A DNA stretch of 64,000 nt from a virus: the IMG/VR virus record IMGVR_UViG_3300050147_000032; one strand, given 5' to 3'. This document shows positions 233-53,632 of this stretch, one piece after another (position 1 is the first letter of the stretch; each line of letters begins with the position of its first letter). Position numbers and translations under genes: made by a program. Under the pieces are notes generated by a model. That model was not told the origin of the DNA, did no database searches, and saw only the letters and a program-made list of their open reading frames with translations.

Positions 233-1342
233 TCATTGCTTCGATTTGCTTTCTTCGTAAGCACGAAGCTTGTTGATATAGAAATTCAATTTGTATCCTG
301 CAATTTCTCTACCAATAAGTCCATCAGGAATTTCGATAGGTTCAAATGCAAGTTCTTCAAAGATGTAATGAAATTGCCGACGTTCGATATCCGAAAGATT
401 ACAATCAATCAAATCCAGAAGATCTTTACGCTGTTCTACATTCTTTGTATGAAAAACTTTGTACTTGATGCAGAAATCAATCACATCAGTGTACGGGAAC
501 TTGAATCTTTCCATCGATTTACGAGCGCACCCAAGCCACTTCACGTTACTAGAAGCATTGCATTTATCAAAATTTCGACCGAGTCTATCAATAGACACAG
601 ACGCAATTATAACATCAACAGAAACATCTCTACCAATTGATTTGATATAATTTAGCGTATTCTTGATTTCAACAACATCCCATTCTCTAATCAAAACGCC
701 AAATACATCACCAATGAAATCGCAACGAAGAAAAGCATCAAAATCAAGAAGAACCTCAAAGAAGCGATATGCATAAGGTTCCTTCATAGCACGATTGATT
801 TCTTTCCAGAAACGATTAGAATCAATTGTATCAAGTTCTCCGGAAAGAACAATTTCTTTGCATAGTTCGACTGTTTCAGGTGCAATCTTGAAATCGTAAC
901 GAGCAGCGAATCGAGCAATACGAAGAACACGCATCGGATCTTCTTTGAAAGCATCGCTCACATGACGAAGGATACCGTTTTCGATATCAGACATCCCACC
1001 GAATGGGTCGATGATTTGATTATCATCACCAAGAGCCATTGCATTGATGGTCAGATCTCGTCGTTGGAGGTCCTGCTCAAGAGTTACGTCTTCTGTCTGA
1101 ACTTCAAATCCATTATATCCAATCCCAGTCTTCTTTTCTCGACGAGCAAGAGCATATTCTCCATTGAGGTCTGGATGCATATAGACAGGAAATGTAACAC
1201 CGACTTGATCATATCCGTTCTCGATCATCCATTCTGGATTTGCTCCAACAATGACATAATCCATATCTTTGGGATCAATGCCCATCGCCATGTCACGAAC
1301 AGCGCCGCCAACGAGATAAAATTCTGGATCAATGTGTTTCAT
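233..1342 (-). CDS. cca: CCA-adding enzyme (tRNA nucleotidyltransferase)
   Basis: Motifs YLVGGAVRD, PKDMDYV, EYALARREKK, DLQRRDLTINAMA, IDPFGG, EDPMRVLRIARFAAR are typical of class II CCA enzymes. Confidence 0.95.
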   Translation of the reverse strand: MKHIDPEFYLVGGAVRDMAMGIDPKDMDYVIVGANPEWMIENGYDQVGVTFPVYMHPDLNGEYALARREKKTGIGYNGFEVQTEDVTLEQDLQRRDLTINAMALGDDNQIIDPFGGMSDIENGILRHVSDAFKEDPMRVLRIARFAARYDFKIAPETVELCKEIVLSGELDTIDSNRFWKEINRAMKEPYAYRFFEVLLDFDAFLRCDFIGDVFGVLIREWDVVEIKNTLNYIKSIGRDVSVDVIIASVSIDRLGRNFDKCNASSNVKWLGCARKSMERFKFPYTDVIDFCIKYKVFHTKNVEQRKDLLDLIDCNLSDIERRQFHYIFEELAFEPIEIPDGLIGREIAGYKLNFYINKLRAYEESKSKQ

Positions 1343-1586
1343 AAAGAACTTTCTATGTCTTCAATAGATAGATTATACCATCACAGAAATAAACAATCAA
1401 CATCACCGCATGAAATGACGATTCATTTTCTTAATGAAAGATGATGCAATAAAAATCAATCCGATGAAAACGCCGAATATGATTCCAATCAAAAAAGATA
1501 ACATAATTTTCCTTACTTTAAGAGTAGTGTATAAATGCAAATCACAAGAACTAAAACAGAAATGGTCACGATAAAAATCAAATCCA

Positions 1587-2611: not shown

Positions 2612-3736
2612 TTATTCGGCATTCTTCTGGAGATCGTTGAAGCCAAATTCTTTGTATTTGCGCTTCATGAAATCCTTATAATCATTGCTTCGACCGATGT
2701 AAAGATTCATCACCAAACCAAAAAGCAAGTCATTGATATCTGCCTTCATCTTGATAGCAAAGTCCTTACGAACAAGATGTTTGTTATCTTCGTATGCTTT
2801 TTCTACAGTATAGACAACATGATTGTAAAGAGTCGATACCTTCTCTTGCATATCATCGATTGTTTTCATTGCAAGAGCATCAGTAGCAAACATCGAACGC
2901 AGATCGTCAACACCTTCATCCAAGATACATTCATAAAGTCGACGAGGATTATTAATCGAATCCTTTGCATGATGCAGACTGATATATTTGTCAGTCTTGA
3001 TCTTCACTCGTTGACCATTTTTCATCACAAAGATGAAACCTTCGATATCATCGAGCATCGAAGGGACTTGCTCGATGAATTCCTTATGAGACAAACCGGA
3101 TTGCATGTTAACTAGTGCGTTCATCCATTCAGAAAACCACAAATCGATGTATCCTTTAAGATTCCAGTCAACTTGAATAACGTCAATAGAATTAAGAACA
3201 ATCAGACGTGGTTCCAAGTAGCCTAATACGATGCGATTCCAAGGAGCAACCCATTCCAAATTGACCGTATTACCGTGAACTTCGGCTGATTTAAGTTTCT
3301 TTTTCAAATCAGCATTTTCTGGTTGATCGAGCCACTTCATTGCATCAATAGCTTGCTCAGAGAACAGAGAACCTTTGCTCTTCAATCGAAGTTCACCGTT
3401 ATGCATGTAAGTCGACATCAATGAGCCATCAGACTTAACTTCAATCCAATCAATCTCATTCAGATCAAGATTCATCGTCATTGGATTCTCATTGATGTTG
3501 AAGAACTTTGGCATAGGCAAAGATGCCAAACGCACACAGTCGCCGTCCTTCGTAACTTCAAACATCGTACCACGACACCACAAAGCACCCGGCAACATGA
3601 AATCGGTATAAGTTGCCAGCCGATAGTTGAAGATCCAGTAGATCTTATCATCCAGCAAGAATTCTTGCTTATAGAAAGCTTCGGTTTCTTTCGTCAGCTT
3701 AACGAGTTGGTCAAACAATTCAATCTGCTTATTCAT
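2612..3736 (-). CDS. rnlA: RNA ligase 1 (T4 Rnl1/gp63-like)
   Basis: IFNYRLATY, CRGTMFE, MPKFFNINEN, motif I EVKSDGSL, EGFIF, KIKTDKY. Start moved to the ATG at 3736 behind a GGAG RBS. Confidence 0.92.
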   Translation of the reverse strand: MNKQIELFDQLVKLTKETEAFYKQEFLLDDKIYWIFNYRLATYTDFMLPGALWCRGTMFEVTKDGDCVRLASLPMPKFFNINENPMTMNLDLNEIDWIEVKSDGSLMSTYMHNGELRLKSKGSLFSEQAIDAMKWLDQPENADLKKKLKSAEVHGNTVNLEWVAPWNRIVLGYLEPRLIVLNSIDVIQVDWNLKGYIDLWFSEWMNALVNMQSGLSHKEFIEQVPSMLDDIEGFIFVMKNGQRVKIKTDKYISLHHAKDSINNPRRLYECILDEGVDDLRSMFATDALAMKTIDDMQEKVSTLYNHVVYTVEKAYEDNKHLVRKDFAIKMKADINDLLFGLVMNLYIGRSNDYKDFMKRKYKEFGFNDLQKNAE

Positions 3737-4367: not shown

Positions 4368-4811
4368 TTAAAATTTCATAAACATACCACAGATCGCATT
4401 CCCGCAATTAGCTGTCCCTGTCTTATTCAGACTCGAATTCCTGATCAAATCAAATATAAAAGACATAGCCGAACTATTATCTTTACACTGCATATCAAAC
4501 AAAGCTTTGTTCTCAGGAGTAACCAAAGATTTCATTTCTTCAAGTGTCAAAGTATTTTTGTTGATAACGGCAATATTTTTGTCGTATTGTTTCTGGCAAG
4601 CAAAACCAAATTCTTCTTCGGTCATTGGTTTGATATTTCTTTCCAATGCAATCGCAAAAGCAGCATTGAAAGCTTTCTTCGAAGAATATGCAAGCTTTGC
4701 ATAGCCAGAATGATATCCAACGAGATATTTTCCTTCTGTTTCTTTTGCAAAAGAAACGTGCTGAGCACCAGTCATTTCTTTTGCTGTCAATACAATAATA
4801 TGCTTGGCCAT
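4368..4811 (-). CDS. Hypothetical protein
   Basis: ORF starting at the ATG of the repeated promoter/RBS cassette. Confidence 0.65.
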   Translation of the reverse strand: MAKHIIVLTAKEMTGAQHVSFAKETEGKYLVGYHSGYAKLAYSSKKAFNAAFAIALERNIKPMTEEEFGFACQKQYDKNIAVINKNTLTLEEMKSLVTPENKALFDMQCKDNSSAMSFIFDLIRNSSLNKTGTANCGNAICGMFMKF

Positions 4812-15436: not shown

Positions 15437-15543
15437 GCGTCGTTAGCTCAGTTGGTAGAGCATCGGACTTACATCAAGTGCAGAGAAATACTGCACTTTA
15501 GTTAATCCGCAGGTCGCTGGTTCAAGTCCAGCACGACGCACCA
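15437..15543 (+). tRNA. tRNA-Lys(UUU)-like gene with a 31-nt insertion in the anticodon loop
   Basis: 107 nt minus 31 gives a canonical 76 nt. Body closely resembles enterobacterial tRNA-Lys. Removing 15471-15501 gives loop CT-TTT-AA. Confidence 0.8.
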
Positions 15544-17695: not shown

Positions 17696-18044
17696 ATCGT
17701 CCGATCGATCGCTTACTTTGAAAATTGATATCTTCGATTTGATCCACGAGAATCTAGATCCAGATCAACATGTCGAATTCGTCGAATCTCTGTCTTGTTC
17801 TGATAAAGTAATCGATCATGTCATGGAACAGATCTTTGATGGATATACATATAACGGATTTCGTGGAAATTTGTCCAGTAATCCAACATCAACTTACACT
17901 GCGCTTGATCGAGCGCGTAATCGCATTATCCAGCTTGCTGATAAAGAAGCGCAGGATAAAATCAAAGAGTTGTCAGATGCATATGATAAGTTACAAATTC
18001 GGTACAATGATTTGACCGAAAAGATGTACAAAACGGTTTATTGA
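17676..18044 (+). CDS. Hypothetical protein
   Basis: 122-aa ORF overlapping the upstream gene. Confidence 0.65.
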   Translation: MTHLKVESSDRSLTLKIDIFDLIHENLDPDQHVEFVESLSCSDKVIDHVMEQIFDGYTYNGFRGNLSSNPTSTYTALDRARNRIIQLADKEAQDKIKELSDAYDKLQIRYNDLTEKMYKTVY

Positions 18045-18282: not shown

Positions 18283-18361
18283 TCCGCAGAATCCGAGCAA
18301 GGTGCATGGACGGGACTGTTAATCCCTGGTTAGACTGGATCGTTGCCAGTGTGCGGAGCCA
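18283..18361 (+). tRNA. tRNA-Asn(GUU) with atypical T-loop
   Basis: GGGA-CTGTTAA-TCCC, G73, CCA; T-loop reads ATCGTTG. Confidence 0.85.
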
Positions 18362-18368
18362 TATTTTA

Positions 18369-19165: not shown

Positions 19166-19216
19166 TAGGATATCTTTCAGCAACCATTAAACTCTTTTAC
19201 AGTTAATGATATCCTG
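19166..19216 (+). ncRNA. AGGAT/CAGCAA element copy 1, displaying a Lys(UUU)-like anticodon loop
   Basis: AGGATAT/ATATCCT basal stem, CTTTCAGCAAC bulge, upper stem closed by the 7-nt loop CT-TTT-AC. Confidence 0.75.
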
Positions 19217-20010: not shown

Positions 20011-20120
20011 GGGTGTGCTCTGGTGAGGTGTATGCATGGTGAGTAGCCATAGGAGCATTAACTGACATGTAGCCATACTGTTAGGGGGCAATTTGGGTTC
20101 GATTCCCAACATATCCACCA
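20011..20120 (+). ncRNA. 110-nt tRNA-like RNA with Ala identity elements (mini-tmRNA-like)
   Basis: GGGTGTG/CATATCC acceptor with G3:U70, A73, CCA; T-arm TTGGG-TTCGATT-CCCAA; no D stem or canonical anticodon arm. Confidence 0.7.
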
Positions 20121-20500: not shown

Positions 20501-20577
20501 CGGTAGTTAGCTCAGTTGGTTAGAGCGGAGAACTCTAAATTCTTTGGTCATCGGTTCGAATCCGATACTACCGGCCA
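20501..20577 (+). tRNA. Amber suppressor tRNA (anticodon CUA)
   Basis: CGGTAGT/ACTACCG, canonical D and T arms, GAGAA-CTCTAAA-TTCTT, G73, CCA. Confidence 0.9.
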
Positions 20578-22149: not shown

Positions 22150-22392
22150 GTGAACATTATGAGCAAACAATTTACTGAAGATGACATCAAAGTTTGGAAA
22201 TCTATGATCGGCGAAAAGGTTTGGAAGAATCCAAAAACAACATCTAAATTTCAACCAAAGCCTTTCAAGTCTGGTTTGAAAGTGAATACGGTCAAAGATG
22301 TTGTTCAACATGATCATACTGTAAATCTTGCATTCGTGTTTCATGAAGATGAATCTCAGGTTGAATGTTGGCGTTGTAGCATTGCGCCATAA
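22150..22392 (+). CDS. Hypothetical protein
   Basis: 80-aa ORF. Confidence 0.6.
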   Translation: MNIMSKQFTEDDIKVWKSMIGEKVWKNPKTTSKFQPKPFKSGLKVNTVKDVVQHDHTVNLAFVFHEDESQVECWRCSIAP

Positions 22393-22398
22393 AGAATT

Positions 22399-22544
22399 TA
22401 GGATATTTGCAGCAAACAAAAAAGCTAATAGGACTTTCTGTCTCAATTGACGTGGTGGTTCGATTCCATCACTCCGGACCAATAAATCATATTTCGGAGT
22501 TGGCGAAACTGGTAGACGCGGAAAGAAGCAAAAAAGATATCCTG
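22399..22544 (+). tRNA. Circularly permuted tRNA-Leu(UAG) enclosed in AGGAT/CAGCAA element copy 2
   Basis: The 3' half (TAG GA CTTTC, variable arm, T-arm, ACTCCGG-A-CCA; 22429-22481) precedes the 5' half (TCGGAGT, Leu-type D-arm GCG-AAACTGGTAGA-CGC, GAAAG-AA; 22494-22527). Acceptor and anticodon stems are complementary across the halves. Confidence 0.82.
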
Positions 22545-22556
22545 TAAATATAAGAT

Positions 22557-22632
22557 GCCGATTTAGCTCAGTTGGTAGAGCAACTGCCTTGTAAGCAGTA
22601 GGTCGTCAGTTCGAGTCTGACAGTCGGCACCA
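22557..22632 (+). tRNA. tRNA-Thr(UGU)
   Basis: GCCGATT/AGTCGGC, ACTGC-CTTGTAA-GCAGT, CCA. Confidence 0.96.
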
Positions 22633-22641
22633 TGATTCAAT

Positions 22642-22719
22642 GGCTTTGATAGTTTGGAAAGATTTCCATCATGCAGGCTGATGGAAATTATTGTGGTTCG
22701 ATTCCACACGAAGTCACCA
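22642..22719 (+). ncRNA. D-stem-less tRNA-like RNA with a 10-bp central stem
   Basis: GGCTTTG/CGAAGTC-A-CCA, ATTTCCATCA-TGCAGGC-TGATGGAAAT, TGTGG-TTCGATT-CCACA. Confidence 0.7.
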
Positions 22720-24612: not shown

Positions 24613-24670
24613 TAGGATGATTTCAGCAAACAATAAAACTTTTATTTGAAAAAGCAAAACAATCATCCTG
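24613..24670 (+). ncRNA. AGGAT/CAGCAA element copy 3
   Basis: AGGATGA/TCATCCT stem and TTTCAGCAA; AT-rich central hairpin with an ambiguous loop (AT-TTG-AA or CT-TTT-AT). Confidence 0.7.
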
Positions 24671-24974: not shown

Positions 24975-25060
24975 GCGGGGTTAGCTCAGTTGGTAGAGCA
25001 CTTGCCTTCCAAGCAAGAGGCGAATAGTTTACATCGGTTCGAGCCCGATACTCCGCTCCA
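24975..25060 (+). tRNA. tRNA-Gly(UCC) with a long variable region
   Basis: CTTGC-CTTCCAA-GCAAG, U73, CCA; 15-nt variable region. Confidence 0.9.
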
Positions 25061-25070
25061 ATTACAATTG

Positions 25071-25156
25071 GCATAGGTAGCCAAGTGGTCGAAGGCGATG
25101 GATTGCAAATCCAATGAAGAAATTCCACGTCAGTTCGAATCTGACCCTATGCTCCA
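25071..25156 (+). tRNA. tRNA-Cys(GCA) with a long variable region
   Basis: TGGA-TTGCAAA-TCCA, U73, CCA; 14-nt variable region. Confidence 0.9.
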
Positions 25157-25749: not shown

Positions 25750-25804
25750 TAGGATGATTTCAGCAACCTACTCTACAACCGTTAATTGTAAAAAGGTCAT
25801 CCTG
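25750..25804 (+). ncRNA. AGGAT/CAGCAA element copy 4, displaying an Asn(GUU)-like anticodon loop
   Basis: AGGATGA/TCATCCT stem; TACAA-CCGTTAA-TTGTA hairpin. Confidence 0.75.
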
Positions 25805-25889
25805 TTAAGCTAAAAATGCTTTACTTTTCTTTGAACTTTGTTATAATCAGATTTGGAATTTTCCAAATTAACCTTTGAAAGAGAATATT

Positions 25890-26597
25890 ATGATCGATTT
25901 TTCGGCTCTGAGCCTTGCTTCTATTGATTTCGCTGCTGTTGCCAAGATTATTGGCATCGATATCATGCTAGGTGGTGATAATGCTGTTGTCATTGCACTA
26001 GCATGTTCTGCTTTGCCTGTTGCTATGCGAAACAAAGGCATGTTCTTTGGCACTGCTGGTGCTGTAGTTATGCGAGGACTATTTCTTGCTATTGCAGGTC
26101 TTGTTCTTGGTATTCCTTTTGTCAAAGTCATCGCCGGTGCTTGGTTGTTCTGGATTGGCTATAGTCTACTGATTGCAAATGATGGAGATGAACACAACAT
26201 CACTCCAGCAGACAGTTTGCTTGGTGCAATCAAAACGATTATCATTGCAGATATCATGATGAGCGTTGATAATGTGATGGCAGTTGCATCTGCTGCAGAA
26301 TCTACTGGTGCTCATAGCACATTGTATGCAGTTGCTGGTATTTTGTTCAGTGTTCCTATCATTGTTCTTGGTGCTCAAGTTATCATGAAATTGATGGATC
26401 GATTCCCTGTCATTGTCTGGGGCGGAGCTGGTCTGCTGGGCTGGGTTGGTGCTGAGATGATTATTTCTGATCCCAATATGCACAACATCGTAAGTGATGA
26501 TCAACATCTGATTTTCAAGATTCTTGGTTTTGTTGTTGTGATTATTGCAGCTCTTGCTCAGAAAAAGTTCACCACAAAGCACGAAACTGCTGTATAA
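25890..26597 (+). CDS. terC: TerC/YjbE-family membrane protein
   Basis: IDIMLGGDNAVVIALAC, IIIADIMMSVDNVMAVA. Confidence 0.92.
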   Translation: MIDFSALSLASIDFAAVAKIIGIDIMLGGDNAVVIALACSALPVAMRNKGMFFGTAGAVVMRGLFLAIAGLVLGIPFVKVIAGAWLFWIGYSLLIANDGDEHNITPADSLLGAIKTIIIADIMMSVDNVMAVASAAESTGAHSTLYAVAGILFSVPIIVLGAQVIMKLMDRFPVIVWGGAGLLGWVGAEMIISDPNMHNIVSDDQHLIFKILGFVVVIIAALAQKKFTTKHETAV

Positions 26598-26621
26598 TTT
26601 GATTTTAACCGAAAAGGAAAT

Positions 26622-27263
26622 ATGATGACTAATCTTGTTTTGAATCTGACTAAGCCCAATGAAACTCCTGCTAAGTTGCAGTTGAATCTGAAGAAAGGTG
26701 AATCTTTTGTTGTTAAGCTATCCTGGGATGGCTCGACTGACTTGGATCTACATGCTATCTATTGTGTGAATACTGGTGCCGGAGCGAAGGTCAGTGCTCT
26801 CGAAGACATCTTGTCCACATATAATCTGAAGCGAACAATCCAAGGCCAAGAAGTTGGTACTTTGCCGAAGAATCCAGATGGTTCGTTCGAAATTCGTAAT
26901 GGTGCTTTGAAGCATTCTGCTGATGCTCTTGATGGTACTGCCGTTGGTGATGACGAATGGATTCGAATCGATCCATCGAAGCTGGTCGCATCAATTGGTT
27001 CGAATATCGAAATTCCTCTGATCGCCATGATCCACCCGCAATCTGCTGGTTTGAAGTTTGCTAATGTACAGAATGCGAAGGTCACTATCTTGAATGCAGA
27101 TAACGCAGTTTTGATGACAGCAACTCTTTCTTCGATGTTCGGTGAATTTGTTGGTGTTCAAATGGGATCCATTATCATCGAATCTGATGGGAAGTCTACA
27201 TTTGCTCAAGTTGGTGTCGGGTTCAATCTCGATTTCAATGGCGTTATCGCTAACTTTGCATAA
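26622..27263 (+). CDS. TerD-family stress protein
   Basis: LNLKKGE, LSWDGSTDLDLHA, HSAD...GDDEWIRID; adjacent to terC. Confidence 0.75.
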   Translation: MMTNLVLNLTKPNETPAKLQLNLKKGESFVVKLSWDGSTDLDLHAIYCVNTGAGAKVSALEDILSTYNLKRTIQGQEVGTLPKNPDGSFEIRNGALKHSADALDGTAVGDDEWIRIDPSKLVASIGSNIEIPLIAMIHPQSAGLKFANVQNAKVTILNADNAVLMTATLSSMFGEFVGVQMGSIIIESDGKSTFAQVGVGFNLDFNGVIANFA

Positions 27264-27272
27264 GGAATAATC

Positions 27273-28025
27273 ATGGCTCTGACACTTAATCTCCAAAAAT
27301 CCGAACAAACCTTGAAGCTGTGCCTTCAAAAGAAGGGTATTGCTACTCCACCTCCTGTTGACTTTGCTGTTCTTCTGGATGTATCTGGTTCATTTGAAGA
27401 TGAACATGCAAGCGGTATCACAAATGATCTGATTACTCGTCTTGTTCCATGGGGCATGACTTTTGATCCAGATCGAAAGCTTGATGTAATTACATTCAGT
27501 GATGGACAAGGACATGTCGAAAATGTTGGTTCCATCACCGAAGATAACTATCCTGGTTTTGTCAAGAAGTATGTAATCAACAAGGTTCGTGGCTGGTGCG
27601 GTGGTACAGACTACTCGTATGCTATCGAAGAAGCACTTCGTGTATTTGGTTGGCTATCGAGTGATTCTATCACAGAAAAGGCATCTGGATTCTTTGGTTC
27701 TCTGTTCGGTAAGAAGACTCCAGCAAAGGTAGAAGCACAACGACTTGCTGTTGCTTTCATTATCACAGATGGTCAGAACTATGACCAAACTCGTACTGAA
27801 CAAATCTTCCATGATTCAGAACTGCGTGGTGACAAAGTCTACTTCATGTTCATTGGTGTATCGAACAATCCAACAGAATTCCGTTTTGTTGATCAAATGG
27901 CCGATATGTTTTCGAATGTTGGTATTGTGAAGGTTCCGAACATTCGTAAATTTGTCGAGCAAACTGATGAACAATTGAATGAACAGTTTATCACCGATGA
28001 ATTTGTGAATTGGTTGAAGAATTGA
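27273..28025 (+). CDS. Ter-associated vWA domain protein
   Basis: MIDAS motif LLDVSGSF, GGTDY, FIITDG, FMFIGV. Confidence 0.85.
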   Translation: MALTLNLQKSEQTLKLCLQKKGIATPPPVDFAVLLDVSGSFEDEHASGITNDLITRLVPWGMTFDPDRKLDVITFSDGQGHVENVGSITEDNYPGFVKKYVINKVRGWCGGTDYSYAIEEALRVFGWLSSDSITEKASGFFGSLFGKKTPAKVEAQRLAVAFIITDGQNYDQTRTEQIFHDSELRGDKVYFMFIGVSNNPTEFRFVDQMADMFSNVGIVKVPNIRKFVEQTDEQLNEQFITDEFVNWLKN

Positions 28026-28174: not shown

Positions 28175-28230
28175 TAGGATGATTTCAGCAACCTACTCTT
28201 ACATTGATAAAGTAAAAAAAGGTCATCCTG
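28175..28230 (+). ncRNA. AGGAT/CAGCAA element copy 5, displaying an Ile(GAU)-like anticodon loop
   Basis: AGGATGATTTCAGCAACCTACTC identical to copy 4; TTAC-A-TTGATAA-A-GTAA hairpin; GGTCATCCTG. Confidence 0.75.
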
Positions 28231-37270: not shown

Positions 37271-37785
37271 AAAGAACATATGATGTGGGTGTTTCATCCG
37301 AAGTAAATATTTTCATAGGTAACGAAGTTGAATCTTCAAAAGCATATGAACTAAAAACATTGTTTATTGTACCAGAAAACATTGTTGATATCATAGAAGT
37401 TATCAAGAAATATGAAGATCAAGTAGAGCATATCTATTTGAATGCAAATCATACAATCATTGAATCAGATGTTCTTGCCGGAAAGTATTACGATGTTTTG
37501 AACTATATCGAACAATCTGATAAAATCAAGCATGTAACTCTGGAAATTTTCTTCTATGAGCCAACGCATCTGGAACTTTTACATGCTTATCCAAAACTTC
37601 TATTGAATATCTCTATTCAGATTCCTCGTGTTGACAAAATTTCTAGTAGAATCGCAATCAAGATTGATGATGTCGATTTTGATGCAACAAATGCAGGAGT
37701 ATGGACATCAAGAGTAGATGATCTTCTGAATAAAAAGATGAGATTCACTCCATGGATTTCTTATACGAAGGATGAAATTCAATGA
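37267..37785 (+). CDS. Hypothetical protein in the deazaguanine cluster
   Basis: Translationally coupled between folE and the TGT-like gene. Confidence 0.7.
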   Translation: MKRTYDVGVSSEVNIFIGNEVESSKAYELKTLFIVPENIVDIIEVIKKYEDQVEHIYLNANHTIIESDVLAGKYYDVLNYIEQSDKIKHVTLEIFFYEPTHLELLHAYPKLLLNISIQIPRVDKISSRIAIKIDDVDFDATNAGVWTSRVDDLLNKKMRFTPWISYTKDEIQ

Positions 37786-51265: not shown

Positions 51266-53632
51266 ATGAAACAACATACAATCGTTCTACTCGTTGGTCC
51301 TTCTTGTTGCGGAAAGACAACGTTTGCCAAGAAGATCCAAGCAGCAATCGTCGAAGAAAATCTGAAATGTGTGATCATTTCATCAGATGACATTCGACGT
51401 GATCTGCTTTGCGACAATGAGATTCATAAGCTCGATGCATCGATGTCTTCTGTATCAGCCGAAGCCCATCATATCCTGAAGACAAAGGTTGATTTTCACT
51501 CGAAGTTTCCTATCAATACGGATGTCATCATCGTTGATACGACTGGATTGTCTGCTCATTTCCGTGAAGAAATGATCGAGATTGCAAAGAAGAATCATTA
51601 CAACATTGATATGTTCGTGTTTGATTATCCTCGTTCTGATCTCGAAGGATTTGTTGCTTTGAATCACGGCGACATGTATGTTACTGGTCATCAAATGAAA
51701 CGCCTCCGCGAAGAGGTTATGCCCAATCTAAATCGCAAGGCATATGGAATGGTTCAAATTTTCAAGAAGCCAGAAGATGCTGTTGCTTGGATTCCTACTA
51801 TCGAGAATCGTGATGTTGTCATTCAAGCAAATGAAGATGATAAGATCGTCGTCATCGGAGATGTGCATGAATGTGTCGATGAGCTAGTTGCTCTGTTTGA
51901 TAAAATTCCAACTAACGTCAATCATATCGCTCTTCTAGGGGATATCGTTGATAAAGCTGAAGACACAGAACGTCTGATCAACTTGATTTTTGATATGACA
52001 AAGAGTCAGAAGAATTACGATTTCTTCTTGATTCGAGGAAATCATGAACGATATGTTTACAAGCGACTGAAGGGGATTCTTGCTCCCAACGAAAAGCTTG
52101 ACAATGAATTCTTCCAATCATTCAAAGTGCTTTCTGTAGATGAAAATCTTCGAGAAAAGTTCTTCTTCCTGTATGAAAATGTGATGGTGGATCATCTGAA
52201 GTTTATTCGTGGACGAGAAAAAGCTATTATTCTGACTCATGCTCCTTGCTCCAATGTTCATCTGGGAAAGCATGACAGCAAGTCATCTGGTAAACAGATC
52301 AACTTCTACTTCACTTCTCGTGATCAAGAAAAGATGCTCGATGAACTGAAATTCATCGAAGATGAAGCAGATAGCAATCATCCTTGGCATCTGTTTGGTC
52401 ATGTTGCTCATGATGGTCGTCAACCTAAGATGATCAAGAACAAGATCTTCATGGATACTGGCTGTGTTCATGGCGGGAAACTGTCTGCCGCAGTATTCAA
52501 TGGTCGTCATGTTGATTTCATCACAGTTGATTCCAAACGTGAAGTTCATGGTTTGATTTCTCTGGAAAAGAAAGAAACGAAACTGGAGAAGATTGTTCGT
52601 TCTGATATCAATCTTTCCGAAGAAGATCAACGATCGGTAGATAAAATTGCAAAGAGCGGAGCGAAGTTCATTTCCGGGACAATGGCTCCTGCTCCTTCAA
52701 AAGATATGGATATCGAGTCTCTGGAAGCTGCTGTTTCATATTTCAAGGAACGAGTGACAGATGTTGTAATTCAACCGAAATATATGGGATCTCGTTGTCA
52801 ATTTTATCTCTACAAGGATCGAGCAAAGAACTTTGCAACTTCCAGGAATGGATTCAAAATCAAGATTGATAAACTTCAAGAATACATGGATGTGTATCAA
52901 ACATGGATCGAGAAGTCTATCAAATTTGAAGATGAGTTGATTTTGGATGGAGAACTTCTTCCTTGGTCAGCACTCGGTAAAGGTCTGATTGATGGTGCTT
53001 TTGGTCAATATCAAAGCGCTATCAGTTGGACTCTAGATAACCTGAGTCTCGATGAAACTTTTGCTGGATTTGATATTTGCAAGAAACTGAACATCACAGA
53101 GCAACAAAACAATCTTGTTCAGTTTCAGGAACAGCTTGCTCTATATGGCCAAGATCGTCATCTGGAATATAAAGCATTCGACATCCTTTCTATTGATGGG
53201 AAGATTGTTGCTGGTAAGCAAAATGATACGAGCTTCTTTGTGTTGAATTCAGATAAGACTTTGAAGATTAATCTGAACGAACCAGATGCACTTTTCCGTA
53301 TTCAGAATTTCTTTGATGTGCTTGTTTTTGATAAGGGATTTGAAGGTATTGTGATCAAGCCTGTTTCTTATGATTCGAGCAAGAATTGTGTTCCTTACAT
53401 GAAAGTCCGCAACAAAGAATATCTGCGTCTTGTGTATGGTTTCAACTATGCATCGCGCTTGTCCGAACTATGCAAGCAAAAGAATACTCGTGGAAAGATG
53501 AACTTGTCGATTGATGAATTTGAACTTGGTCAGGCTATTCTTGCTGAGAAGGATGATGTAAAGCGTAAGCATCTGATTTCTGCGATGTTCGGTAAGATCG
53601 CTAAAGAACGCACTTTGGATCCACGTCTGTGA
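51266..53632 (+). CDS. pnkp: Polynucleotide kinase-phosphatase Pnkp (kinase, phosphoesterase and ligase domains)
   Basis: GPSCCGKT, SSDDIR; GDVHE, GDIVD, RGNHE, FGH, DTGCVHGGKLSA; ISGTMAP, KYMGSR, DGELLPWS, EGIVIKP, KVRNKEYLRLVYG; ends DPRL. Confidence 0.9.
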   Translation: MKQHTIVLLVGPSCCGKTTFAKKIQAAIVEENLKCVIISSDDIRRDLLCDNEIHKLDASMSSVSAEAHHILKTKVDFHSKFPINTDVIIVDTTGLSAHFREEMIEIAKKNHYNIDMFVFDYPRSDLEGFVALNHGDMYVTGHQMKRLREEVMPNLNRKAYGMVQIFKKPEDAVAWIPTIENRDVVIQANEDDKIVVIGDVHECVDELVALFDKIPTNVNHIALLGDIVDKAEDTERLINLIFDMTKSQKNYDFFLIRGNHERYVYKRLKGILAPNEKLDNEFFQSFKVLSVDENLREKFFFLYENVMVDHLKFIRGREKAIILTHAPCSNVHLGKHDSKSSGKQINFYFTSRDQEKMLDELKFIEDEADSNHPWHLFGHVAHDGRQPKMIKNKIFMDTGCVHGGKLSAAVFNGRHVDFITVDSKREVHGLISLEKKETKLEKIVRSDINLSEEDQRSVDKIAKSGAKFISGTMAPAPSKDMDIESLEAAVSYFKERVTDVVIQPKYMGSRCQFYLYKDRAKNFATSRNGFKIKIDKLQEYMDVYQTWIEKSIKFEDELILDGELLPWSALGKGLIDGAFGQYQSAISWTLDNLSLDETFAGFDICKKLNITEQQNNLVQFQEQLALYGQDRHLEYKAFDILSIDGKIVAGKQNDTSFFVLNSDKTLKINLNEPDALFRIQNFFDVLVFDKGFEGIVIKPVSYDSSKNCVPYMKVRNKEYLRLVYGFNYASRLSELCKQKNTRGKMNLSIDEFELGQAILAEKDDVKRKHLISAMFGKIAKERTLDPRL

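Follow-up and report, generated by a model that had tools for sequence, protein, structure and literature searches.

Circularly permuted tRNA genes are known from Cyanidioschyzon merolae, other algae and the archaeon Thermofilum pendens; their transcripts are cut by the splicing endonuclease at a bulge-helix-bulge (BHB) motif, ligated to a circular intermediate and opened at the acceptor only later, by RNase P and 3′ processing, and the products are proven decoding tRNAs. These genes have been reviewed (PMC3400036, PMC4238349). Here we analyse an element of similar outward appearance, located at positions 22399-22544 of a 64,000-nt stretch (hereafter, the window) of the IMG/VR virus record IMGVR_UViG_3300050147_000032, which an earlier reading based on the letters alone (the sequence-only reading) had interpreted as a circularly permuted tRNA-Leu(UAG) gene. 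From its anatomy, its relatives and a protein gene that accompanies many of these, we consider it probable that the element is the gene for a Y-RNA-like noncoding RNA of the YrlA type, composed of a handle for a Ro-like protein and a mimic of tRNA-Leu.

YrlA RNAs have been defined by the motif GNCGAA(N)G near the 5′ end, a stem in which the two ends pair, a tRNA-like module and a location less than 4 kb from the Rsr gene on the same strand (PMC4201824). Within the module, the order of parts is T-arm, closed acceptor, D-arm and variable arm (Chen et al. 2014, PMC4201824). The acceptor of M. smegmatis YrlA measures 7 bp, and this RNA is cleaved by RNase P and acquires CCA; RNAs of this type, with their permuted order, were reported in 2014 from 22 phages, mycobacteriophages among them (PMC4201824), so that the remark in the sequence-only reading that it knew of no phage example needs correcting. 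Two phage proteins of the Ro60 kind have also been studied. The Ro60 of Thermus phage phiLo binds two adjacent Y-like RNAs (Yrl1 and Yrl2, with a CGAA bulge) and the host polynucleotide phosphorylase (PMC12135203), and the Ro60-like gp130 of phage Bas63 counters Ppl and adjoins tRNA genes, where Y RNAs have been conjectured (bioRxiv 10.1101/2024.10.10.617714). Our literature search found no paper on permuted tRNA genes in phages, on the handle described below or on the function of DUF2828.

Anatomy of the element and its recurring handle

The window belongs to a 97-kb IMG/VR record (G000) that represents ~44% of the genome of a jumbo phage, a distant relative of the Serratia BF/Erwinia group. 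The element lies on the plus strand and consists of a 3′ tRNA part, a 12-nt linker and a Leu-type 5′ part, in this particular order, between outer flanks that pair with each other. The 5′ strand of the closing helix (T followed by AGGATAT, 22399-22406) faces ATATCCT and a terminal G (22537-22544): AGGATAT (22400-22406) pairs with ATATCCT (22537-22543), T22399 and G22544 close the helix as a U-G pair, and the helix is kept in both minimum free energy (MFE) and centroid folds. Its sequence recurs in sister copies at 19166-19216 of the window and at G000:C1 16698-16819. The helix strand is followed by the handle bulge TTGCAGCAA (22407-22415; family motif NNNCAGCAA) and by an A-rich 5′ joining strand (22416-22433), which contains TAG-GA and has no or only weak pairing in the MFE fold.

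The tRNA-like body begins with CTTTC (22434-22438), the 3′ strand of an anticodon-stem-like helix, which pairs across the halves with GAAAG (22521-22525). Then come a long variable arm of class II, Leu-type (22439-22452), as drawn in the ARAGORN cloverleaf of the rejoined sequence, the T-arm GGTGG-TTCGATT-CCATC (22454-22470) and, at 22471-22481, the acceptor 3′ strand ACTCCGG (22471-22477) with A73 (22478) and CCA (22479-22481). The linker (22482-22493) closes the acceptor helix, whose 5′ strand TCGGAGT (22494-22500) forms seven of seven pairs with 22471-22477, including a U1-G72 wobble. The 5′ part continues with U8 and G9 (TG) and a Leu-type D-arm, GCG-AAACTGGTAGA-CGC (22501-22519), recognised by direct reading, by a structural scan and in a consensus fold; with G26 and GAAAG, the 5′ strand of the anticodon-stem-like helix (22520-22525); and with an A-rich 3′ joining strand (AAGCAAAAAAG, 22526-22536), such an A-rich tract ahead of the 3′ helix strand being a feature of the whole family.

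Everything that the sequence-only reading had stated about the letters of this locus, i.e., the two halves, the linker and the pairing across the halves, was correct by direct reading and by ARAGORN, and the permuted order and the Leu-type body are real: with the 5′ part joined to the 3′ part, ARAGORN calls an 87-nt class II tRNA-Leu(tag). In genomic order the element is detected neither by ARAGORN nor by Rfam. Another Leu(UAG) gene was found neither in the 97-kb record by ARAGORN nor in the window by ARAGORN or Rfam, as had been noted before. Because AA stands on both sides of the break, the join may fall at 31/32, 32/33 or 33/34, so that the break near 33/34 proposed earlier is one of three; forced-join trials, in which ARAGORN accepts many registers, were uninformative for fixing it. 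All possible joins yield the loop AAUAGGA with A33, which departs from a canonical U33/R37 loop, and the earlier caveat about A33 therefore holds for each of them. The locus recurs unchanged in contigs from 24 or more independent DNA metagenome runs of leaf litter and is thus not an assembly artefact. IMG/VR contained no near-identical relatives of the element, and loci with the flanking proteins gave distant relatives only.

The paired flanks are not peculiar to this element. They represent a recurring handle, made of a 7-8 bp closing helix, the NNNCAGCAA bulge, a variable middle, an A-rich 3′ strand and a terminal G. Seven copies are present in G000, five in the window on the plus strand and two just upstream of it on the minus strand. 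The helices of the window copies read AGGATGA/TCATCCT or AGGATAT/ATATCCT, with the bulge TT(T/G)CAGCAA directly after the 5′ strand. A covariance model of 61 positions, built from 36 short handles that all come from other phages and in all of which CAGCAA is invariant (36/36), detects the four short window copies, all on the plus strand (four of four, E 1e-8 to 1e-3): 19166-19216 (hairpin insert with the loop CTTTTAC; 24.7 bits, E 1e-3), 24613-24670 (44.2 bits, E 1e-8), 25750-25804 (hairpin with the loop CCGTTAA; 30.6 bits) and 28175-28230 (7 nt after tRNA-Met; 33.4 bits). It also detects three copies in a cultured phage, and its search of 80 kb gave no further match at E<=1; the long element is out of its reach, as 61 positions cannot span 120 nt. 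In both upstream sisters (G000:C1 16698-16819 and ~17726-17845, minus strand), a 6-nt linker separates a 3′ tRNA part from the 5′ tRNA part that follows it.

Whole-genome scans found nine handle matches in G000 against one in the reversed-sequence control, and 12-16 against 1-2 in a complete relative of 313 kb (G001). The G001 helices have other sequences (AAGACCC/GGGTCTT, AAGACTC/GAGTCTT, TAGACGC/GCGTCTA and others). Nine G001 copies were judged genuine; all of them lie in, or within a few kb of, the three tRNA clusters of that genome and on the tRNA strand, and G001 handles often start 0-1 nt past the CCA of the upstream tRNA. One copy is located directly downstream of the G001 tmRNA gene (L098 11526-11929, 96 bits).

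A survey of the viral collection, based on word scans followed by a structural filter (83 sources, 2.27 Mb), returned 212 distinct handles versus 31 in controls. Their inserts comprise 110 short ones, 81 long ones of other kinds, 16 strict permuted tRNA-like modules and five tRNAs in ordinary order; the controls contained neither permuted modules nor ordinary-order tRNAs. The helices covary, with 67 distinct sequences among the 161 handles that have the full motif, and A accounts for ~63% at two positions, 2-3 nt ahead of the 3′ helix strand (158 non-redundant handles). The five enclosed ordinary tRNAs are complete and were classified by ARAGORN as Asn, Gly, Gln, His-like and Phe (L217 1316-1430, L225 2029-2146, L240 4671-4786, L252 1967-2084 and L273 2355-2456, those in L225, L252 and L273 on the minus strand); the handle can therefore also act as the paired leader and trailer of a normal pre-tRNA. 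Permissive Rfam searches of the handle returned no known ribozyme and no other family, which leaves a self-cleaving ribozyme unsupported. Readings at the DNA level (retron-like, integron attC-like, terminator, inverted repeat) were also discarded: there is no U-tract, co-orientation with the tRNAs and with the Ro-like gene is strict, the bulge is strand-specific, and the G-U pairs of the helix work only on this strand as RNA.

Permuted tRNA-like modules form a distinct class among the inserts. A structural scan for T-arm, closed 7-bp acceptor and D-arm identified three elements with canonical T-loops and D-arms in G000 and three in G001, and in the survey 16 handle-enclosed inserts passed a strict permuted-tRNA test, against none in reversed-sequence controls. 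RNAalifold on these 16, the window element included, recovered the T-arm (with compensatory changes), the closed 7-bp acceptor and the D-arm; compensatory changes occur in 13 of 16 pairs, and all seven acceptor pairs covary. As the set was partly selected for pairing, this demonstrates many different tRNA-like bodies and is no unbiased test. N73-CCA is encoded in five of the 16, again including the window element, where 0.25 were expected (p≈3.5e-6). Conservation of the modules, covarying stems and enriched CCA across unrelated phages rule out a recent scrambling event without covariation, an outcome that the sequence-only reading had named as one that would speak against it. The point at which handle and body meet varies from 26/27 to 38/39: it may fall at 26/27, at 28/29 or 29/30 in the anticodon stem, where the canonical loop stays intact, or in or next to the loop, as in the window element. 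Neither a shared cut-site motif nor a fixed distance to the handle was found among the modules.

Three permuted copies in G001 (203513-203628, 204074-204188 and 262077-262192) have joining segments that always sum to 15 nt (8+7, 9+6 and 5+10), with different break points. Two modules are of the Asn(GUU) type, and ARAGORN listed no tRNA-Asn among the 49 tRNAs of G001, as if permuted genes filled the place of a missing isoacceptor; this argument was dropped since Rfam finds a contiguous tRNA(GUU) in that genome. The latter gene (G001:209357-209442; L108 11357-11442) has a long variable arm and one acceptor mismatch, scores 38 bits in Rfam and is missed by ARAGORN.

The Ro60-like protein encoded beside the handles

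Clustering of open reading frames from 48 handle-rich sources yielded one family of ~500 amino acids that is present in 23 of them, always on the strand of the handle. The gene lies 0-470 nt from a handle in 21 of these 23 sources and 1.3-1.7 kb away in the other two. By tblastn, the protein was found at 21 of 44 loci with two or more handles, at four of 28 with a single one and at none of 107 without (Fisher p 8e-14). In G000, the gene is outside the window (G000:C1 14875-16344, minus strand), 354 nt and ~1.4 kb downstream of the two upstream sisters and on their strand; in G001, it is located at 520-1512 (minus strand) and adjoins two handles.

Pfam assigns DUF2828 and DUF7788 to this protein, with a weak match to VWA_2, and a DxSxS motif (D292, S294 and S296) is invariant in the family. 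An AlphaFold (AF2) model was obtained with a predicted local distance difference test score (pLDDT) of 78 and a predicted template modelling score (pTM) of 0.70. Foldseek comparison of the model with the PDB placed Ro60/TROVE proteins in all of the top 13 positions, over the full length and at E 6e-9 to 6e-7, among them the Ro60 proteins of Xenopus and human, Deinococcus Rsr and the Ro60 of Thermus phage phiLo, whereas the next tier consisted of isolated vWA domains only. Among Swiss-Prot models the top six matches were likewise Ro60/TROVE, with Ro60 from five species first and other TROVE proteins after them. The predicted structure thus combines a ring of helical repeats with a vWA domain that carries a MIDAS motif. 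At the sequence level, a profile of the family against PDB sequences also ranked Ro60/TROVE chains best, but weakly (E≈0.1-0.3).

The family is widespread, with members in 711 isolated-phage records that cover Felix O1/Bas63-type coliphages, Listeria A511, Campylobacter, Staphylococcus and Enterococcus phages, mycobacteriophages and jumbo phages, including Erwinia jumbo phages related to the window. Mycobacteriophage members include some annotated as ‘Ro-like RNA binding protein’ (E 1e-70), and the homologs in Bas63-type coliphages share 39% identity with the linked protein. In the cultured Ralstonia phage RSP15 (LC121084.1), the Ro-like gene stands within a tRNA array with at least six handles around it, located within 82658-93983; one of them holds a Leu-type permuted module with CCA and a bulged acceptor. 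In Erwinia phage pEa_SNUABM_50 (L323, MT939488.1 98964-106631), the gene is annotated only as hypothetical; a single small open reading frame separates it from a putative RNA ligase gene upstream, the gene for tRNA nucleotidyltransferase (the CCA-adding enzyme) is eight genes further downstream, and no CAGCAA handle was found within ±5 kb of it.

A probable YrlA-type RNA and competing explanations

The anatomy of the element, the recurrence of the handle and its genomic linkage to the protein are established by sequence analysis, and by its structural model the linked protein has the Ro60 fold. The overall layout is that of YrlA: a stem formed by the ends, with a conserved motif at its 5′ strand, encloses a T-arm, a loop-closed acceptor, a D-arm and a variable arm, and the two sister elements lie upstream of a Ro-type gene on the same strand; copies sometimes stand among tRNA genes. 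Differences are also apparent. The GNCGAA(N)G motif is absent and the conserved one-sided bulge has TTGCAGCAA (in the family, NNNCAGCAA), which makes these RNAs a distinct variant. The partner is a DUF2828/DUF7788 protein missed by the TROVE hidden Markov model, there are seven to at least 12 copies per genome instead of 2-4, most copies hold hairpins and some whole ordinary tRNAs, half of the permuted modules retain an anticodon loop, and the window element itself is of Leu-type class II with CCA encoded. Given the different motif, the divergent Ro-like partner, the many copies and the frequently kept anticodon loops, the element, which would work like YrlA, is not a member of the Rfam family RF02553. 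With phiLo and Bas63 it has in common a phage protein of Ro60 fold and small RNAs encoded beside its gene. The phiLo RNAs, in contrast, are defined by the CGAA bulge and have no tRNA-like module described (PMC12135203), and neither of the two papers describes a permuted tRNA body or a CAGCAA handle.

As for the mode of action, the element would be transcribed as a single RNA of ~146 nt, whose own 5′ and 3′ ends pair into the closing helix; with its conserved one-sided bulge (UUGCAGCAA) and the A-rich opposite strand, this helix would form the handle, the putative binding site of the Ro60-like protein (DUF2828 plus DUF7788/vWA). The remainder is predicted to fold as a tRNA-Leu-like body in which the 12-nt loop closes the acceptor and the anticodon-stem-like helix runs into the handle instead of an anticodon loop, and which may mimic tRNA-Leu for factors that recognise tRNAs. 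As the gene includes A73-CCA, the acceptor is probably opened by RNase P, at a cut predicted between 22493 and 22494 by analogy to M. smegmatis YrlA (PMC4201824), and the 3′ side would then be trimmed to CCA, leaving two base-paired pieces of ~83 and ~52 nt. In the maturation envisaged by the sequence-only reading, an opened acceptor is probable; two cuts and a ligation that produce a decoding tRNA-Leu(UAG) found no support. By comparison with bacterial Ro-Y RNA particles, which tether exoribonucleases, and with Bas63 gp130, the particle may act in RNA surveillance or counter-defence.

Several observations weigh against this interpretation. Between the window element and the Ro-like gene there are 25 kb, and the two are on opposite strands; the element hence lies beyond the distance of less than ~4 kb that characterises YrlA genes, within which its two sisters fall. 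Handle-embedded modules from five loci align to the full RF02553 model at 32-50 bits (E down to 2e-8), but these scores are below the gathering score of 69 and come from the tRNA-like module only; in the best alignment the GNCGAA motif of the model is set against unrelated sequence, and 22380-22560 of the window gives no match even at E<=10. In roughly half of the permuted modules elsewhere, a canonical anticodon-type loop is preserved intact, and when G001 modules are joined virtually, perfect 5-bp stems are restored (CCT/CC...GGAGG and CGT/CC...GGACG, a compensatory pair, with the slash at the break); intact loops and restored stems are not found in canonical YrlA and are what a real split tRNA would be expected to have. 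The fold of the whole element has a z-score of only -1.5. In the four RNA runs examined, coverage was confined to the neighbouring tRNA-Thr and came from other organisms, which speaks neither for nor against the element. Finally, the Pfam TROVE model (PF05731) has no match in G000 or in the handle-rich G001, although it is present in the handle-poor relatives G020 and G003, a distribution that looked contrary to a Y RNA until the DUF2828 protein proved, in its predicted structure, to have the Ro60 fold.

The closest competitor in form is the one favoured by the sequence-only reading, namely a true circularly permuted tRNA-Leu gene whose transcript is cut and ligated, by Rnl1 with Pnkp, or by Rnl2 for breaks inside a stem, to a decoding tRNA-Leu(UAG). 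In this scheme the leader-trailer helix would juxtapose the anticodon-side ends, the two joining strands would be removed, RNase P and 3′ trimming, with the encoded CCA, would open the acceptor, and the Ro-like protein could serve as a chaperone. We regard such a gene as quite unlikely. It has in common with the algal and archaeal genes that the 3′ half comes first, that the intervening sequence is short, that leader and trailer pair at the anticodon-side break and that the halves rejoin to a cloverleaf, which is called tRNA-Leu(tag) and has A73, CCA, a class II variable arm and a Leu-type D-arm; the lack of another Leu(UAG) gene in the record, the canonical loops and perfectly pairing split stems of related modules, with one compensatory change among them, and the enrichment of CCA also speak for it. 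The RNA repair genes that the sequence-only reading had invoked are indeed encoded: an Rnl1-family RNA ligase is matched within a 399-amino-acid frame (2984-3577, minus strand; G000:C1 22247-22840; PF09511, 54.7 bits) and a Pnkp-type ligase domain within a 794-amino-acid frame (52667-53572, plus strand; G000:C1 71930-72835; PF16542, 84 bits). Rnl1- and Rnl2-type ligases occur in both genomes with permuted modules, and the Ro-like gene of a cultured relative adjoins an RNA ligase gene. The same two ligase types are, however, also encoded by G003, a relative that has no handles, and RtcB is missing from G000, G001, G017, G020 and G003, so that nothing ties the handles specifically to ligation. 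The leader-trailer junction combines a 7-8 bp helix, a 9-nt one-sided bulge and long A-rich strands, without the 3-4-3 motif of a BHB, and a tRNA splicing endonuclease (PF01974) was not found in the 97 kb of G000 (~44% of the genome). Bacterial hosts are not known to have such an endonuclease either.

Further points lead away from a decoding tRNA. In the loop AAUAGGA, A33 replaces the near-universal U33, and what would be the anticodon belongs to an A-rich strand of the kind found in handles generally. Breaks range from 26/27 to 38/39, with no common cut-site motif or fixed distance to the handle, the acceptor of the RSP15 counterpart is bulged, and the argument from an isoacceptor gap failed on the contiguous tRNA(GUU) of G001. 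What in algae and archaea is a processing junction appears here as a protein-linked handle that is common to ~200 elements, most of which hold hairpins only and five of which hold ordinary tRNAs that need no rejoining; it travels with a Ro60-like protein, and in the YrlA/Y RNA layout the module serves as a mimic (PMC4201824). Genes in phages that look like permuted tRNA genes should not be counted as evidence for tRNA splicing. A broader version of the same idea treats the handle as a natural device for split or permuted tRNAs, in which the Ro60-like protein holds the helix while Rnl1/Rnl2 and Pnkp rejoin the anticodon arm. Modules with intact loops and CCA would then become functional tRNAs, possibly including the Leu-type element, which might be a decoder or else a two-piece RNA that leucyl-tRNA synthetase could charge via A73, CCA and the class II body. 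This version is also quite improbable in our judgement; if true, it would represent, outside archaea and algae, the first system of tRNA permutation that is assisted by a protein and independent of an endonuclease.

Handles might alternatively display tRNA bodies and anticodon-like hairpins as bait for tRNA-targeting defence nucleases of the host or tRNA-modifying enzymes, the relevant part being the displayed tRNA surface and not Ro-dependent RNA decay, with or without the Ro-like protein. Many short inserts are indeed hairpins of 4-6 bp with 7-nt anticodon-like loops (CTTGTAA, CTGTTAA, CTGATAA, CTTTTAC), about half of the permuted modules present intact anticodon loops, the phage carries many unconventional tRNAs together with a set of RNA repair genes, and the homolog of the protein in Bas63 acts against defence (bioRxiv 10.1101/2024.10.10.617714). 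In the window element, though, it is precisely the anticodon loop that is absent or opened, no target nuclease is known, and resemblance of loops in short AT-rich hairpins is weak evidence. We consider a decoy unlikely as the explanation of the element; it overlaps with a YrlA-type RNA, is compatible with it and does not exclude it. Very unlikely, in our view, is a generic clamp in which the handle serves leader-trailer processing or stability of the tRNA operon, as a signal for a host or phage RNase or as a block to exonucleases, independently of the Ro-like protein and with the permuted tRNA as a by-product or remnant of rearrangement. The tight packing of G001 handles, often 0-1 nt after the upstream CCA as if they were tRNA units, and the five handles around ordinary tRNAs would fit a clamp. 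Its independence of the protein is at odds with the strong same-strand linkage to the Ro-like gene (p 8e-14), and the helix is too short for RNase III and is not followed by a U-tract.

If the YrlA-type interpretation is right, the handle, i.e., the closing helix with its CAGCAA bulge, offers a searchable candidate RNA partner for the uncharacterised DUF2828 family of Ro60-like proteins, one member of which is a shown counter-defence factor whose RNA partners were only guessed at. Phage tRNA arrays would hide many such RNAs, as exemplified by the seven in G000, three of which are near-perfect rearranged tRNAs that gene finders miss or might mis-call. It also raises the question of what the mimics with real anticodon loops and CCA, which is encoded in a third of them, are bait for.

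A further similarity is with the dictyostelid Class I RNAs (RF01414), which were reported to be unique to Dictyostelia and have their own promoter element and a partner protein with an RNA recognition motif (PMC7919456). The Rfam consensus of RF01414 reads stem, CUUACAGCAA, variable part, A-rich part, stem and CUG, with CUUACAGCAA at the position of the handle bulge. Both kinds of RNA have a short terminal stem with a motif at its 5′ strand (UUUCAGCAA, UAACAGCAA or UUACAGCAA in phages), a variable middle, an A-rich 3′ side, the end CUG(U) and a median size of ~60 nt. Full-model alignments to RF01414 were obtained for 24615-24670 (24.3 bits) and 19166-19216 (22.9 bits) of the window, both below the threshold of 41.5, and the long element at 22399-22544 was unmatched. 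Class I RNAs differ in being eukaryotic and in having no tRNA-like inserts described. It is possible that they are eukaryotic members of the same family of Ro-like/handle RNAs, and the common motif suggests that a protein partner is worth seeking there, the function of Class I RNAs having been open for two decades.

Unusual tRNAs and other genes nearby

The tRNA region around the element contains a number of further oddities. Two genes away, at 22642-22719, ARAGORN calls a tRNA-Leu(cag) with the loop UGCAGGC (G33), a non-Leu body and an 8-nt variable region, which escapes both Rfam at the gathering score and ARAGORN when introns are allowed; two Leu-anticodon-like RNAs that lack U33 thus stand side by side. 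Before tRNA-Trp, at ~18290-18367 (G000:C1 ~37553-37630), there is a tRNA-like gene of unconventional build that has an anticodon arm of Asn type (CGGGA-CTGTTAA-TCCCT), G73-CCA, an odd D region and a T-arm-like ACTGG-ATCGTTG-CCAGT, missed by both ARAGORN and Rfam. A Lys-like tRNA at 15437-15540 (Rfam, 62 bits) has a 31-nt insert in the anticodon loop with an 8-bp hairpin, which is much too small to be a group I intron and has no handle inside. An amber-suppressor-type tRNA(CUA) is encoded at 20501-20577 and another in G001 (223627-223700), and a 110-nt element at 20011-20120 gives a full-model alignment to the Rfam transfer-messenger RNA (tmRNA) at 29 bits, below threshold.

Variable arms extended to ~15 nt, unusual for class I, are found in tRNA-Gly and tRNA-Cys of the window (24975-25060 and 25071-25156) and in tRNA-Arg, tRNA-Ile and tRNA-Lys of a relative (L019 4301-4387, 7607-7693 and 8495-8581). 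In L005/L034, at ~4540-4720, a tRNA(CAT) carries an ~85-nt anticodon-loop insert that contains a T-arm-like hairpin and a GAAA-capped 7-bp helix, and ARAGORN finds no tRNA there. ROOL RNA and twister-P1 are usual company of phage tRNA arrays, and two handle-rich contigs contain, respectively, a ROOL RNA (L225 5852-6477, 323 bits) and a sub-threshold twister-P1 match (L217 2327-2377, 41 bits). Within the tRNA/handle region of the window, at 25875-28022, a tellurite-resistance-type trio is encoded that comprises TerC, TerD and a vWA-TerF-like protein.

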